A stretch of DNA of 54,714 nt from a virus (Duplodnaviria; Caudoviricetes). Below, one piece after another: positions 534-9,982 of the stretch (position 1 is the first letter of the stretch; each line of letters starts with the position of its first letter). Made by a program: the position numbers and the translations under genes. The DNA lies in the IMG/VR virus record IMGVR_UViG_3300030329_002091, positions 1 to 54,714 of that record. The stretch is one strand, 5' to 3'. Under the pieces are notes generated by a model. That model was given only the letters and a program-made list of their open reading frames with translations, was not told where the DNA came from and did not search any database.

Positions 534-1175
534 ATGGCATTCAAAATGAAGGGATCGTACCATTACGGAAAGAACCCACTTAAACAAGAAGGGACTAAAG
601 AACAACAAAAAGGAGAAGAAGGTCCAATAGAGACTTACGCAGAGAAAATGAAAAAACGTGATTGGGAGGCTGGTAGCACGTTGGAAGAAGGAGATTACGC
701 TACGTATGGACAACAAGCTTATGATAAGAAAGGTAATAAAATTGACTTTGAAGATTTTGAAAGTACTGGTACTGTAAAAATCGATGATAAAGGTAGACCA
801 TACACTTATCATGGAACAGAAAAAATATACTTATCTTCTGCGGATGAAGAAGGACGTCCTCAATCTCCAACCAAACAAACGAAAAGTGGTAAAGGTAATA
901 TATTCACTAAGAAAGGTAGAATTCAGAGACTAGTAAACAAACATTATGAAACTCCCAAAGGTACAAAAAAGAGACAAAAACTTGCAAAAAAATTAGGAAA
1001 ACAGGGTGTTTTCGGCTATGGAGACGTAATGGAACATGGATTTTATCATGGTGGTGAACACAAAGACAGAGGGTATTACAAAGACACTGGCGTCAAGAAA
1101 TTTGTTCCTAATTTAAAATCCTACGATGCTAATCTTTTAGATGAAATAACTCCAAGAAAAAAATCTAAAAAATAA
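534..1175 (+). CDS. Lys-rich leader-family protein (MAFKMKG leader; two modules after NPLKQ and SPTKQ)
   Basis: 213 aa ORF; leader nearly identical to that of 1767; second module shared with ORF 8279. Confidence 0.85.
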   Translation: MAFKMKGSYHYGKNPLKQEGTKEQQKGEEGPIETYAEKMKKRDWEAGSTLEEGDYATYGQQAYDKKGNKIDFEDFESTGTVKIDDKGRPYTYHGTEKIYLSSADEEGRPQSPTKQTKSGKGNIFTKKGRIQRLVNKHYETPKGTKKRQKLAKKLGKQGVFGYGDVMEHGFYHGGEHKDRGYYKDTGVKKFVPNLKSYDANLLDEITPRKKSKK

Positions 1176-1181
1176 AACAGT

Positions 1182-1442
1182 ATGATATATCAAAAATTAC
1201 CGGGTATATATAGAGTAGAATCTCCAGTTAAACAAGAAGATAAAAAAACAAAGAGATTAGAAAAGAAATTAGATAAATTATCTAAAAAAGCATACAAGAG
1301 CCAACGTAAAGGATTTAAAATGTCCGGTATGAATAACTATATGGAATACATGGCAAAAGGAGAGCATTCTAGAAGAACAAAAAAACTACATAAAAAGTTT
1401 GATAAAATAGAAGAGAAATTACACGAACATTTAGACAAATAA
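1182..1442 (+). CDS. Small basic protein with 18-aa leader ending SPVKQ
   Basis: 86 aa ORF, tightly packed with neighbours. Confidence 0.8.
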   Translation: MIYQKLPGIYRVESPVKQEDKKTKRLEKKLDKLSKKAYKSQRKGFKMSGMNNYMEYMAKGEHSRRTKKLHKKFDKIEEKLHEHLDK

Positions 1443-1443
1443 T

Positions 1444-1749
1444 ATGGCGTATAAAATGAAAGGTCCAGCTTTTTTTAAATCAGCTTTAAAGCATAGCAAA
1501 GACGTAAAGCATAATAAACAATTTGGTCCAGGTCATGATTGGACAGCTGTTTCAACTGGATCGGAACCAAAAACTATACACGAGGCTCCTGGTCCAGAGA
1601 GTTCTCCAACAAAGTTTTTAGAAGCTTCTGATCAAGAAAGTTTCTTAGAAGGTGGAGATTGGGACTCTTTTAAGTACCCGTTAAAAAAGAAAAAGTTAAA
1701 ACAAAACGTGCCTGATGAAACACTGAAAGCACAAGTTAGGTCAATATAA
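1444..1749 (+). CDS. Leader-family protein (MAYKMKG...SALKH)
   Basis: 101 aa ORF with the shared leader. Confidence 0.8.
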   Translation: MAYKMKGPAFFKSALKHSKDVKHNKQFGPGHDWTAVSTGSEPKTIHEAPGPESSPTKFLEASDQESFLEGGDWDSFKYPLKKKKLKQNVPDETLKAQVRSI

Positions 1750-1766
1750 ATAAAACTATAGATAAT

Positions 1767-6953: not shown

Positions 6954-7135
6954 CTACAGTAAAAAATATGGCTTATTGGAGAGCTAAAAATAATTGTAAA
7001 GCAGATGGTTCGTATGATGGTGGAAGCTTAAAAGCTAAAAGATCACCAATGAAAAATTATAAAAATCCACAAGATTACGAAATTTTTAACATGGGTAACA
7101 AAGCTACACCTGTAAAAAAGAAGAAAAAATATTAA
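6950..7135 (+). CDS. Small basic protein with SPMK motif
   Basis: 61 aa, ATGA overlap with the upstream gene. Confidence 0.65.
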   Translation: MTTVKNMAYWRAKNNCKADGSYDGGSLKAKRSPMKNYKNPQDYEIFNMGNKATPVKKKKKY

Positions 7136-7921
7136 ATGGCTTATAGACAAAAAAAACCTACATTTTTTGGAAGTGCTTTAAAACAATATTATAGTTACGA
7201 AAACGAATCTAAAACAGAAATATCTAAAGAAGAGTTTATAAAGCAATCAAATAGCCTTAAGCATGTTGGTGCTGAAGGTAAGGCTGCTATTGACCTTTGG
7301 AAATCTTCTTTAATGGGTAAAACTGGTATACATGAAATAGACGCAATGTCTAAACATGATAAACAAAACGAGTATTCAAGAGTATTAAAAAAATACCAAA
7401 CTCCTAAAGAAAATCTTACTAAAGAAGAAATGGACAACGCTAAAGAAGTGTCTCCAACAAAAAGTTTAGATGATATGATACTATCAGGCGCTGGAAAAAT
7501 AGGTACACATAAATATACTTCTGGCTCTAGATCTTATAGAGGAACTTGGGACGTAGACACAATGATGAATAAGCCACCAAAGAAAGATGACTTAATAGAT
7601 AAAAACGGTGGGGACGATAAAGACAATGGAGGTGGAGACGGCTCGAATGGAGGTGGTATAAAAAAACCTAATTTTGGAAAATTAAAATTTCCTAAATTTA
7701 AGAAAAATACAAACTCTAAACAAAAACAATATATCACAACAGCTTGTCCTGTTTTTGGAGAACCAGGTTCGGCTAGTTACAGAGCTGGTATGTTAGAAAA
7801 TAAACGTAGTATGTCTAAAGCAGATTGGAAAATATTTAAAAGACAACAGAGAGATAAACATAAAAAAGGAAAAGGACACAAAGGTCTTTTTGGTGATCTC
7901 CAAAGAAACACAATGATATAG
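7136..7921 (+). CDS. Leader-family protein (MAYRQK...SALKQ) with RGTWDVD module
   Basis: 261 aa; leader resembles those of 1444 and 2092. Confidence 0.8.
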   Translation: MAYRQKKPTFFGSALKQYYSYENESKTEISKEEFIKQSNSLKHVGAEGKAAIDLWKSSLMGKTGIHEIDAMSKHDKQNEYSRVLKKYQTPKENLTKEEMDNAKEVSPTKSLDDMILSGAGKIGTHKYTSGSRSYRGTWDVDTMMNKPPKKDDLIDKNGGDDKDNGGGDGSNGGGIKKPNFGKLKFPKFKKNTNSKQKQYITTACPVFGEPGSASYRAGMLENKRSMSKADWKIFKRQQRDKHKKGKGHKGLFGDLQRNTMI

Positions 7922-7922
7922 T

Positions 7923-8282
7923 ATGGGATATAAAATGGGATCACAATCCAGAACACCCTGGAAAGTAATAAAAAAGAAATTAGGACACGGTATATTAGGA
8001 GAAGCAAATAACGATGGTACTATATTCGTAGATAAAAGTATACCAAGTGGAAGTAAAAAAGAAAAAGAAGTTGTTGCTCATGAAGGAAAACATATGGATG
8101 ATATGCAATCTGGAGTTTTAGCTTATGGAGATGACTTTATTAGATATAAAAACAAAACATACCATAGAAAAGATGGTAAAATAAATTATAACGGCAATTG
8201 GCTTCCAGAAGGTAGCAAACAATTCCCTTGGGAAAAAGTGGCTTACAAAGAAGGTAATAAAGCAAAAAATCAAAATTCATGA
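7923..8282 (+). CDS. Small zincin-like metallopeptidase (HExxH)
   Basis: VVAHEGKH preceded by G-x-A-x-x-x-G-T-I-F-V and followed by PWEKVAY (candidate third ligand Glu); starts MGYKMG. Confidence 0.7.
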   Translation: MGYKMGSQSRTPWKVIKKKLGHGILGEANNDGTIFVDKSIPSGSKKEKEVVAHEGKHMDDMQSGVLAYGDDFIRYKNKTYHRKDGKINYNGNWLPEGSKQFPWEKVAYKEGNKAKNQNS

Positions 8283-9982
8283 AAAAAAGATCAGGTTTTA
8301 AATTAAAATCATCATTAAAATTTGGACAAAAATCAGCGTTTAAATTAAAAACGTATAATAGTCCTAATAAACAGAAAAGTCCAGTTAAACAAAATGCTGT
8401 GGCAGATCCAAATATAGCTAATCCTAAAACTAAAGTTGAGCATAGTACTCCTAGTGATAAAACGTACGAAATGTTAAAAGAATGGTTAATGACAACAAAA
8501 GGATTTAATCAAGAAGACGCTGATCACATGATCAAAGACGGTGCTTATACAATGAAAGACGTCATAAAAGACATGGGTATGGATAAAGATGTTCCAGCTG
8601 AACCAAAAGGTAAAAAATCAGAAGGTGCTCCAAGTAAACAACTAAAAGATAAAGGAAAAGAAACTGGAGAAACTCAAGAGACTTGGGAGCCAGCTTATGA
8701 AGGTGGTGATCATAGTTGGAAAGATCTTCAAAAAATGAGTGATAAAGATATAATGAAAAATTGGCCTGATGTTGGTAAACATATTATAGAAGATCTTCAT
8801 AAAAAAGGTTATAGAAAAAAGAAAGGAGAGGCTGGACCTTTAAGACAAGAAGGACCTATAACTAAAGAAAATATACCATCAATTGATGTAAAAGAAGGAG
8901 GAAGTGGCGCTTGGGTATATAAAGGTAGTAACTTACATGAAAGACTTAATGACTATGAAGATAGAATAGGATTTATCTTAGAAGATATTTGGGATAAACA
9001 ACCTGGACCTGCTAATGCGCCTGTAGACGAATCACACGCAACCCCAGAACAAGCTAAGGCTCTAAAGACATTGAGAATGGAAAGAGATATAATTCATAAA
9101 AGACTACTAAATCAAAGAGAAGGAAATATAAAACCAGGATATACAGAAGGCGAAAGAGATAAATCTAAAGATGAATCGTATGATAAAAAACCTCCATTGA
9201 AACAAACTAAAAATAAATTAAAATTAGATTTATCAAAGCCAGAAGATGTGGCTATAAAAGAAAGGATGATGGAGATGTTTGGAACTACTGATCTCGATGC
9301 TATATGGGAATATAATAAAAAACTTACGCGTTCTAAAAAGAAAACAAACAAAAAGAAAAACTTAACAAAAGATGGACATCTTAATTTAAGTTATTTCCAA
9401 TCAGACGAAGAAGGTCCAGATTTAACAAAAAAACTAATACCTTCAAAAAAAGCAGCTCCAAATAAACAAATAAATCCAGATAAATATAGAAACATGAGTA
9501 ATGAAGAGCTAAATAAAATTAATATTCATGATTTAGGTAAAGATAATTTTAGAGGAACTGCTGCTGAATATGTAAAAAAATATGGATTTACAAAAGATAT
9601 AATGAAGCATTTCGCTAAAGAACTTCCTAAGGCTGTAAAAAGAGGAGTTAAAAAATCAATTTCTCCAGAAGGAGTATTTGCTGTGCCTAAAGCTATCATC
9701 AAAACAGGTAAAAGATTTTTAGCTCCAACTAAACAAACTAAAAGCGGAAAAGGTAATATTTTTACAAAAAAAGGTAGAAATCAAAGAGTAGTCAATAAGT
9801 TTAATAAACTTGAAGATAAACAATTAAAAAGTAACGCTAAGTTAAATGAATATGGTACTGTTAGAGAGCTTAATAAATTTAGTAGAATAAGTAAAAGAAA
9901 GGATAAAGTAGAGAAAAAAATTCACAAAAAAGGATTAGAGCTAACTAGAAATAAAAAAGGTAAATTAGACTTTAAAAAATAA
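8279..9982 (+). CDS. Lys-rich modular protein (putative polyprotein) with seven P-x-[KR]-Q motifs
   Basis: SPNKQ, SPVKQ, APSKQ, GPLRQ, PPLKQ, APNKQ, APTKQ. Confidence 0.85.
   Translation: MKKRSGFKLKSSLKFGQKSAFKLKTYNSPNKQKSPVKQNAVADPNIANPKTKVEHSTPSDKTYEMLKEWLMTTKGFNQEDADHMIKDGAYTMKDVIKDMGMDKDVPAEPKGKKSEGAPSKQLKDKGKETGETQETWEPAYEGGDHSWKDLQKMSDKDIMKNWPDVGKHIIEDLHKKGYRKKKGEAGPLRQEGPITKENIPSIDVKEGGSGAWVYKGSNLHERLNDYEDRIGFILEDIWDKQPGPANAPVDESHATPEQAKALKTLRMERDIIHKRLLNQREGNIKPGYTEGERDKSKDESYDKKPPLKQTKNKLKLDLSKPEDVAIKERMMEMFGTTDLDAIWEYNKKLTRSKKKTNKKKNLTKDGHLNLSYFQSDEEGPDLTKKLIPSKKAAPNKQINPDKYRNMSNEELNKINIHDLGKDNFRGTAAEYVKKYGFTKDIMKHFAKELPKAVKRGVKKSISPEGVFAVPKAIIKTGKRFLAPTKQTKSGKGNIFTKKGRNQRVVNKFNKLEDKQLKSNAKLNEYGTVRELNKFSRISKRKDKVEKKIHKKGLELTRNKKGKLDFKK

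Follow-up and report, generated by a model that had tools for sequence, protein, structure and literature searches.

The window analysed here is the whole of IMG/VR record IMGVR_UViG_3300030329_002091, a single contig of 54,714 bases from an uncultured marine podovirus with a P22-type portal and a crAss-type muzzle domain. It carries a set of otherwise unrelated, mostly lysine-rich open reading frames (ORFs) that begin with nearly the same short leader, typified by MAFKMKG and referred to below as the tag. The tag is conserved at the level of the protein, the bodies behind it are hypervariable between conserved flanking genes, and one tagged ORF (7923-8282) encodes a minimal zincin-like protein with an HExxH motif. 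The reading that we favor, tentatively and with rather less than even confidence, is that the tag together with a second motif, [SA][PA]xK, may be the recognition and trimming signal of this zincin system for basic proteins that accompany the phage DNA, following the logic of the T4 internal proteins.

A six-frame regular-expression scan of the window found leader-like starts on the plus strand only, at 534, 1182, 1444, 1767, 2092, 2863, 7136, 7923 and 46868. Eight of these ORFs begin with a string of the MA[FY][KR][MQ][KR] type or with MGYKMG, and the ninth (1182) with the weaker MIYQKL. An initial annotation of the window had proposed that unrelated ORFs share short leaders at these starts, and both the scan and the translations agree, with the qualification that 1182 (MIYQKL) and 7923 (MGYKMG) are weaker variants of the tag and that ORF 6950-7135 is a further member beyond the set named at that time. 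The tag is built from two to three copies of a [A/S]-[P/A/F]-hydrophobic-K-x unit and is laid out as MAFKMK-G, 3-15 residues, and then [SA][PA]xK[Q/H/K]. The tagged and associated ORFs (lengths in amino acids, aa; pI, isoelectric point) are the following:

534..1175, plus strand: tagged, 213 aa, pI 9.5, starts MAFKMKGSYHYGKNPLKQ; SPTKQ at residue 111 opens a module shared with ORF 8279
1182..1442, plus strand: weakly tagged, 86 aa, 24% Lys, starts MIYQKLPGIYRVESPVKQ
1444..1749, plus strand: tagged, 101 aa, starts MAYKMKGPAFFKSALKH
1767..2090, plus strand: tagged, 107 aa, pI 11.4, starts MAFKMKGSHHYGKNPLKH
2092..2832, plus strand: tagged, 246 aa, starts MAYKQKPPLFFK
2863..3465, plus strand: tagged, 200 aa, starts MAFKMKGSPMKRNFGIGASPVKQ; a second module follows PPLKQ at residue 80
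6950..7135, plus strand: further member, 61 aa and Lys-rich; contains MAYWRAK at residue 7, SPMKN and TPVKK
7136..7921, plus strand: tagged, 261 aa, starts MAYRQKKPTFFGSALKQ
7923..8282, plus strand: minimal zincin-like protein, 119 aa, with the tag-like start MGYKMG; a core gene of the clade
8279..9982, plus strand: multi-module Lys-rich protein, 567 aa, with six P.KQ
34968..46142, plus strand: giant protein, 3724 aa
46868..47128, plus strand: tagged but outlying and acidic (pI 5.3), 86 aa, starts MAFKMRGFTPFTQ; its place, downstream of the giant gene, is a third hot spot

ORF 8279 overlaps the stop of the zincin gene by 4 nucleotides, opens with the junction motifs GFKLK, SAFKLK, SPNKQ and SPVKQ, and occupies the place where other lineages fuse C-terminal tails to the zincin. 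Ten of 11 candidate proteins in the window have a pI of 9.3-11.4 and 13-24% Lys, ORF 46868 being the acidic one. PADLOC gave no match for five of the proteins, and the ESM Atlas returned nothing at or above 0.9 for ORF 2092. The interval 534-9982, which had been presented as one tag system, does contain tagged ORFs but also holds conserved genes unrelated to the tag, i.e. 3504-3797, GroEL, GroES and 5629-6953.

Conservation of the leader acts on the protein. The leaders of 534 and 1767 are identical at 42/54 nucleotides and differ in 11/18 codons, nine of the differences being synonymous and two non-synonymous, which bears out the earlier statement that these leaders differ mostly at synonymous positions; because synonymous codons vary while the peptide stays, selection is on the protein. 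The DNA upstream of the tagged starts shows no conservation, and a DNA-level cause (a conserved promoter, start region or repeat) was ruled out since upstream DNA differs and synonymous sites vary. BLASTP comparison among the leader ORFs of the window limited similarity to residues 1-18 (1-36 for 534/1767). The claim that similarity ends after the leader therefore stood with a lone exception, an internal module of 26 residues opening at [SA]PTKQ, in which residues 111-136 of ORF 534 match residues 482-507 of ORF 8279 at 88%.

The same pattern extends to relatives. A degenerate MAFKMKG pattern run over IMG/VR matched at least 120 stretches, and the counts of loci that follow use those 120. MAFKMKG occurs 149 times in them, and in 144 cases there is no in-frame ATG from the preceding stop up to the motif. 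Each of its degenerate positions shows free use of synonymous codons, e.g. GGT 55, GGC 36, GGG 31 and GGA 27 for Gly and GCA 107, GCG 27 and GCT 15 for Ala. At least one core gene is shared with the window in 115/120 loci, and the core and flanking genes were matched in 38 (ORF 3504), 51 (GroEL), 63 (ORF 6513, hereafter o6513), 70 (zincin), 56 (holin) and 65 loci (the large terminase, TerL). Six of the nine tagged bodies used as queries (534, 1182, 1444, 1767, 7136 and 46868) had no match in the listed loci, and the remaining three matched only through the leader or a single module. The tagged bodies are thus hypervariable between conserved flanking genes. The cassette of unrelated small proteins with a protein-level leader that the initial annotation had described is what these counts reveal, and the leader is kept while the downstream modules are swapped, as it had suggested looking for in relatives.

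We also scanned with the terminase, which is blind to the tag, and recovered at least 598 relatives among 600 candidate IMG/VR stretches. A looser start pattern yielded 280 tagged ORFs in 118 sources, of which 61 were the HExxH protein; the others comprise 215 distinct proteins of 31-561 aa (median 120). Tagged proteins of the clade contain 16.5% Lys, against 7.9% in other long ORFs, and the tagged peptide persists in loci whose TerL identity to the window is as low as ~70%. A tblastn search of 50,697 named phage records with the 26-aa leader and the zincin found neither. Regular-expression scans of MW202828.1 (50,000 of 60,850 bases) and of Maribacter phage Panino (50,000 of 77,160) detected no tagged ORF, and there was none among the starts inspected in elemoF (25,001 of 59,846 bases), MW202828.1 and phi38:1 (47,535 of 72,534). 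By these comparisons the tag marks one large clade of uncultured podoviruses. The sole search for a prior description of the tag, a full-text literature search for 'FKMKG' inside words with supplementary files outside its reach, found no paper. Tagged ORFs of four loci (L098, L051, L097 and L105) share a conserved Cys-containing module (...KKQKGGGTTKTCLPASKIRSM...), 76-81% identical and at varying distance from the leader, so not all tagged bodies are of low complexity.

The second motif was evaluated against a null of 1000 residue shuffles of the 45 plus-strand proteins of the window, divided into the 11 candidates (2,047 aa) and 34 others (14,789 aa). P.KQ occurs 14 times in these 45 proteins. 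Eleven of the occurrences are in the candidates, where 0.56 were expected and 0/1000 shuffles reached 11, and three are in the other proteins, where 1.38 were expected and 166/1000 shuffles reached three. The initial annotation had proposed this comparison with composition-matched shuffles, and the excess is clear. The wider pattern [SAGPN]P.[KR][QH] behaved similarly, with 13 occurrences against 0.37 expected in the candidates and 1 against 0.82 in the others. Relatives show the enrichment too: 208 of their tagged proteins, the window left out, contain SP.K 71 times (13.1 expected) and SP.KQ 17 times (0.4 expected), and past residue 35 the respective counts were 30 against 9.4 and 6 against 0.3. 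P-x-K-Q itself is the form that a wider [SA][PA]-x-K motif takes in the window.

That the motif separates modules is suggested by individual cases. In metagenome protein P0007 the leader is followed at once by the second module of ORF 2863 (80% over 127 aa), which in the window comes after PPLKQ; in metagenome protein P0005 ...KSALKH precedes the body of ORF 1767 (71% over 85 aa); and the module shared by ORFs 534 and 8279 opens at the motif. As a general separator the motif fared less well, since boundaries of homology blocks coincide with it only modestly (see below); 43/106 shifted homology blocks were internal copies of the FKMK leader. The term polyprotein did not survive: the ORFs of the window are separate genes and just ORF 8279 is multi-modular, though true fusions exist in relatives.

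The HExxH protein had been proposed to be the peptidase of the system, and the alignment and model are consistent with a protein of this type. In an alignment of 39 homologues M1, G26, I34, H53, E54, H57, W103 and E104 were invariant and F3 and K4 were conserved in at least 90%. The AlphaFold (AF2) model (predicted local distance difference test, pLDDT, 84.7) comprises a small sheet, the HExxH helix, a beta-rich insert and a final helix. It places H53, E54 and H57 in helix 45-63 and W103-E104 in helix 102-116, with residues 1-10 disordered, and E104 is a candidate third metal ligand (Glu) on the downstream helix. The best Foldseek neighbours were abylysin and selecase (probabilities of 0.99 and 0.95, with weak E values of 0.12-0.14). 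VIA Z values were 6.6 for PprI, 6.0 for a M. tuberculosis transcriptional regulator, 4.9 for selecase, 4.7 for ArdC, 4.5 for SPRTN, 4.5 for CapP and 4.2 for Wss1, and the nearest named clusters of the ESM Atlas, which are leads only, were DUF3920, SprT-like, SprT-like/Zn_peptidase_2 and Peptidase_M78 (0.90-0.93). With catalytic-type residues invariant in 39 sequences and neighbours that are mostly zincins, the model would predict peptidase activity. A complex prediction of the zincin with residues 1-45 of the 2863-type leader scored 0.02 and gives no verdict either way.

The zincin also occurs as a domain of larger proteins. A profile search of 1.84 billion representatives returned 657 proteins at E values up to 0.001, and we examined the best 150. 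Among these the domain was stand-alone in 42, N-terminal with a tail in 35, C-terminal in a larger protein in 43 and internal in 18, the other 12 not being parsed by the regular expression. Forty-four of the best 150 exceed 1000 aa; all 44 are homologous to residues ~2780-3610 of the giant protein and have the zincin domain at or near the C-end. The giant protein of the window ends instead in a K/E-rich linker and two Cys-rich (CxxxxxxxxxC...CxxH) repeats, which is why the zincin is a separate gene here, and a profile comparison found no zincin domain in it. The domain is thus fused in some lineages, either to homologues of the giant protein or to Lys-rich tails, and split off in the lineage of the window.

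Fused forms carry the second motif at both borders of the domain. Within 40 aa after the domain [SAT][PA].K occurs in 36/51 tailed proteins against 8.0 expected (its first occurrence lies within 20 aa in 29/51), and within 40 aa before the domain in 25/62 against 6.2 expected. The consensus preceding the domain is K-K-[ST]-P-x-K-[KR]-L-E-x-G, and several fusion linkers contain leader-like strings (PKFKKPKFKK, TAFKRL and SAFNKL).

Several features of the giant protein and its relatives were noted in passing. Residues 2775-2951 resemble a HAD/polynucleotide kinase (PF00702 just below the cut-off; phrog_415), and no RNA polymerase or other domain was recognised in the giant protein. Metagenome protein P0101 (2725 aa) combines a C-terminal zincin with a Zeta-toxin/AAA_33 kinase-like domain at 1723-1868, a mix that fits the polyvalent-protein pattern of mixed enzymatic domains. 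The model of residues 2950-3610, made from 16 sequences, is all-helical (pLDDT 68); Foldseek found no credible match for it in the PDB (probability at most 0.23, TM ~0.1), and T7 gp15/gp16 and the PhiM1 ejectosome, which appeared among the rows, were rejected as chance-level. Phmmer against PDB sequences gave nothing for these residues (one chance match, E 0.77) or for the whole giant protein, BLASTP of its C-terminal 1046 aa against phi38:1 gp101 gave nothing significant, and neither phi4:1 gp040 nor any of four fused zincin proteins had a Pfam match.

To follow co-occurrence we used 60 loci holding both flanks, o6513 and holin. An ORF test placed the zincin between the flanks in 52/60, and the tag is at the start of 49 of these 52 zincin ORFs. 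By tblastn the zincin was also present in the interval of L019, L058, L093 and L177 and elsewhere on the locus in L107, and a contig profile search added L037 and L041. The sole zincin-less locus of the 60 was L156, in which o6513 lies directly against the holin and tagged ORFs are absent too. Among further relatives, G001 (41 kb, 69% complete) has neither zincin nor tagged ORF and G003 has the zincin and four tagged ORFs; in G002 and G003 the zincin lies elsewhere on the contig than the locus selected by TerL. On the contigs checked tagged ORFs were never seen without the zincin, whereas the converse occurs. The proposed tie between the HExxH ORF and the tag is supported by these distributions, by the tagged start of the zincin itself and by the [ST]PxK motifs that flank the fused domain.

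Hints on the whereabouts of the tagged proteins come from position and from cultured phages. The tagged genes share their strand with the packaging and structural genes and lie a short way upstream of them. In ORF 2092, residues 12-78 are homologous to the N-terminal part of gp040 of Cellulophaga phage phi4:1 (E 1e-11; PHROG 36695, E 3.5e-8), which is annotated as a virion protein from tandem mass spectrometry (MS/MS). The portal of phi40:1 is 35% identical, and two small Lys-rich proteins of this phage, gp069 and gp080, have MS/MS-based annotations as virion or structural proteins; the stretch that holds them is identical in phi38:1, and gp080 lies two genes after gp078 (the o6513 homologue, E 2e-16), i.e. 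at the position of the second tagged cluster of the window. Untagged gp080 homologues occur in five clade loci. As gp069 and gp080 have no significant similarity to the tagged proteins (best E 0.008 and 0.021), this link is one of composition and synteny. The position and size of the giant protein recall the virion-carried giants of N4 and the crassviruses, but no sequence or fold match bears this out. By analogy, the tagged proteins may be companions of the phage DNA in the virion.

In the favored reading the tag would act as a recognition element through which the small basic proteins and the zincin meet alongside the giant protein, most probably inside the procapsid or on DNA already packaged. 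The tag would then be trimmed at or beside [SA][PA]xK, and the mature basic proteins would leave the particle together with the DNA when a cell is infected. That the proteins are cut, packaged, ejected or directed at the host is in each case inferred by analogy. We also considered a more specific version, doubtful when its parts are taken jointly, in which the clade would possess a second, independently evolved system of capsid targeting and maturation in tailed phages. A tag of 7-25 residues (MAFKMKG...[SA]PxK) would load an open-ended, rapidly changing repertoire of basic, DNA-associated proteins into the heads of these abundant marine phages; a packaged mini-zincin, loaded by the same tag, would trim this cargo on the DNA; and the mini-zincin would be descended from the C-terminal domain of a giant ejected protein. 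Such a system might be likened to that of adenovirus, whose protease matures DNA-bound core proteins.

A number of results weigh against the favored reading. With regard to the motif, the residue after P.K in relatives is K in 52, M in 34 and Q in 33 of 285 cases, so that Q is not general in the clade, although P-x-K-Q is enriched in the window. Any [SA][PA].K is present in just 100/215 distinct tagged proteins of the clade, and trimming at the motif therefore cannot be universal. Starts of internal homology blocks adjoined [PA].K[QH] in 8/163 cases against 12.1 expected in a narrow window; in a wider one the excess was modest, with 17/120 against 10.2 for [PA].K[QH] and 35/120 against 15.8 for SP.[KE]. 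The motif before the fused domain corresponds in the alignment to TPxxxKxL of stand-alone zincins, where the model has its first strand, and may be part of the fold and not a cleavage site. With regard to the enzyme, fold scores are middling (Z below 8) and no family model was matched at E limits of 0.1 for Pfam, 0.01 for PHROG and 1 for NCBIfam, which is why we call the protein zincin-like. With regard to the association, the complete genome G002 (68.7 kb) has the zincin, a gp080 homologue and Lys-rich neighbours bearing SPAK, yet lacks any further ORF of MAFKMKG type. Because the zincin and the tagged ORFs are neighbours in one module, a single insertion or deletion, or at any rate few evolutionary events, may account for their shared presence and absence, rather than dependence. 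This module is missing from the close relatives L156 and G001 (TerL 75-82% identical) and is therefore accessory and not needed to build the virion. Finally, the virion RNA polymerase (vRNAP) of N4, zincin domain included, is packaged unprocessed (PMC5512222).

This last case bears on an alternative that we consider unlikely, in which the tag is a docking or encapsidation signal that is never cut, and the zincin is either tagged cargo acting on host proteins or an encapsidation determinant. The zincin does bear the same tag as the other proteins, and 115/215 tagged proteins lack any [SA][PA].K. The structural neighbours of the zincin include ArdC and CapP, which act on other proteins' substrates. 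According to PMC5512222, the region of N4 vRNAP that includes the zincin is needed for encapsidation, and some such domains may be effectors against host proteins. However, [ST]PxK at both zincin borders in fused forms (36/51 and 25/62) fits cis-processing better, and the enrichment of SP.K inside the bodies (30 against 9.4 expected) also speaks against a tag that only docks.

Rather less likely still, in our estimation, is that the tagged proteins are simply DNA-binding, i.e. H1-like condensers or charge neutralisers of AT-rich DNA, with [SA][PA]xK and AFKMK as SPKK-like motifs. SPKK motifs (S/T-P-K/R-K/R) bind the DNA minor groove. High pI and Lys content in ten of the 11 window proteins, the Lys-rich composition of tagged proteins across the clade (16.5% against 7.9% in other ORFs), a genome of 30-38% G+C, the recurrence of S-P-x-K within bodies and the virion annotation, from MS/MS, of the small Lys-rich phi40:1 proteins would all suit such a role, which is moreover compatible with the favored reading. 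DNA binding gives no reason, however, for the repeat to sit at residue 1 in 144/149 occurrences or to be the sole conserved part; ORF 46868 is tagged but acidic (pI 5.3), and the window motif [SAPN]-P-x-K-[QH] differs from the SPKK consensus. SP.K in relatives is followed by many different residues.

Of similarly low probability is an intracellular role, with the tagged proteins acting in host takeover or counter-defence and the tag being a degron or a pro-sequence for the phage zincin or a host protease. Genes for interaction with the host are typically small, hypervariable and accessory, some close relatives do without the module, the presence of the tagged proteins in particles is a prediction, and AFKM/AFKL resembles N-terminal ClpX recognition motifs. 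Against this, the genes lie on the strand of the packaging and structural genes, directly upstream of these and next to the holin; the module of ORF 2092 and the syntenic phi40:1 proteins point to virions; and the giant protein to which the zincin domain is fused is encoded where the structural module ends. It is very improbable that the tag is a functionless by-product of new ORFs recombining onto the zincin 5' end or onto each other and inheriting the first codons, for although the zincin gene has the same start, the leader segment is mobile (43/106 shifted blocks are internal FKMK copies) and PKFKKPKFKK, TAFKRL and SAFNKL precede the domain in fused forms, the peptide is kept while synonymous sites vary freely, upstream DNA is not conserved, and the peptide is held in 215 distinct non-zincin proteins at TerL identities down to ~70%.

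The remaining gene content of the window was identified by PHROG and Pfam scans. Nearly all genes are on the plus strand, and the following features were distinguished:

3818-5383: GroEL, 521 aa
5370-5627: GroES, 85 aa
9986-10378: holin
12214-12804: second GroES-like protein, 196 aa, directly upstream of the terminase (phrog_13932, co-chaperonin GroES)
13024-15240: TerL
15243-17639: portal
17668-18816: candidate scaffold
18832-20301: capsid-type virion protein (further virion proteins are present too)
23202-29528: virion protein, 2108 aa; its C-terminal domain is of crAss muzzle type (PF25729, E 4e-6, narrowly above the curated cut-off)
46504-46866: thioredoxin-like protein (below the Pfam cut-off)
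51115-51483: SNase-like nuclease
51660-52154: M15 peptidase, probable endolysin, distant from the holin (9986)
52816-54714, minus strand: class II ribonucleotide reductase, at the contig end

The genome is probably incomplete because the ribonucleotide reductase runs past the contig end. By portal, the nearest named records are the uncultured podovirus MW202828.1 (52.6%) and Maribacter phage Panino (51.1%), followed by the Flavobacterium elemo phages (41%) and by Cellulophaga phi38:1, phi40:1 and Calle (35.5%); more distant matches are Cellulophaga and Tenacibaculum phages, and there are 87 named records altogether. A host of Flavobacteriia type can be inferred by kinship alone, because the nearest cultured relatives infect Flavobacteriia. 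Portal and terminase of the window phage group with relatives in Pervagoviridae and Elemovirus, and since this phage bears the muzzle domain, the grouping suggests that a crAss-type muzzle also occurs outside Crassvirales. GroEL, GroES and the 196-aa GroES-like protein are all kept in the clade and in elemo, Panino and phi38:1. The 146-aa product of o6513 (6513-6953) is up to 94% identical in relatives, was found in 63/120 loci, is homologous to phi38:1 gp078 (E 2e-16) and is always positioned between GroES and the tagged cluster. In G002 (loci L211-L214) the holin and the core genes near the terminase are ~12 kb apart (~8400-20600), compared with ~1.6 kb in the window, and the last 10 kb of this stretch contain very large Lys-poor ORFs (454 and 1848 aa). 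As similar large ORFs are found there in L156, L184, L185 and L194, the region between the holin and the terminase-proximal genes is another variable hot spot.

If the favored reading is true, the tag, junction motif and mini-zincin would constitute a rule, readable from sequence, for proteins carried into hosts, in a clade that reaches at least 598 IMG/VR contigs of uncultured marine phages by terminase. So far, to our knowledge, such carried proteins could be recognised mainly in T4-like and giant phages. A further consequence would be a connection between small zincins encoded on their own and the zincin domains at the ends of giant virion proteins, and with it a testable idea of the role of these domains and of the sequence they recognise. 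In the doubtful version with a packaged mini-zincin, the tag would in addition be a handle that could be moved onto foreign proteins to have these phages package them.

Known systems offer partial parallels. The internal proteins of T4 are diverse and have just a capsid targeting sequence in common (PMC3012670). In the clade, as in that account, a short N-terminal peptide is the sole conserved part of diverse, fast-evolving and often basic small proteins, and a phage-encoded protease is associated with the set. The T4 and clade leaders would be analogous, homology not being implied. T4 is a myovirus, whereas the window phage is a podovirus with a P22-type portal; the protease candidate here is a zincin of 100-140 aa, whereas T4 uses the prohead protease gp21, a serine protease cutting after L/I-x-E; and packaging and cleavage are proven in T4, whereas in the clade they are predicted. 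No head-protease family was among the PHROG matches of the 32 window ORFs scanned, a result obtained with no direct comparison to gp21.

Another podovirus of related portal type, P22, has an internal ejected protein, gp7, from which a protease removes a 20-residue N-terminal extension before assembly (PMC4992974). The protease is a host enzyme, that paper citing Conlin et al. 1992 on oligopeptidase A. The removal of an N-terminal extension is the likeness; gp7 is, however, a single protein and not a hypervariable family, and it has no known tag in common with the clade. In crAss001, large and small cargo proteins are stored in capsid and tail and then ejected (PMC10172136). The window phage has a muzzle-type tail protein as well (PF25729 on ORF 23202-29528), but the text of PMC10172136 contains no word starting 'cleav' or 'proteol', and we found no homology between the crAss001 cargo and the set of the window.

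As to the enzyme, the minigluzincins (abylysin and selecase) and the zincins of ImmA/IrrE/PprI type are its best structural matches and share with it a size of ~100-130 aa and HExxH followed by a downstream Glu, which the model here places on a later helix. It differs from them in its weak scores (Foldseek E 0.12, VIA Z at most 6.6), in matching no family model and in the beta-rich insert between the helices. Zincin domains of phage polyvalent proteins are located N-terminally, C-terminally or in the middle of very large multidomain proteins and have been proposed to process those proteins or packaged effectors (Iyer, Burroughs, Anand, de Souza and Aravind 2017, PMC5512222); the 12 clade alignments of that paper could already include the present family. 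The position of the domain at or near the C-end of 44 giants of more than 1000 aa, seen in relatives and not in the window, agrees with this picture. In the window, by contrast, the domain is a free-standing gene of 119 aa, and it is found together with separately encoded, tag-bearing small proteins and a defined junction motif. By analogy, the tag system would follow the logic of T4 internal proteins and polyvalent zincins.

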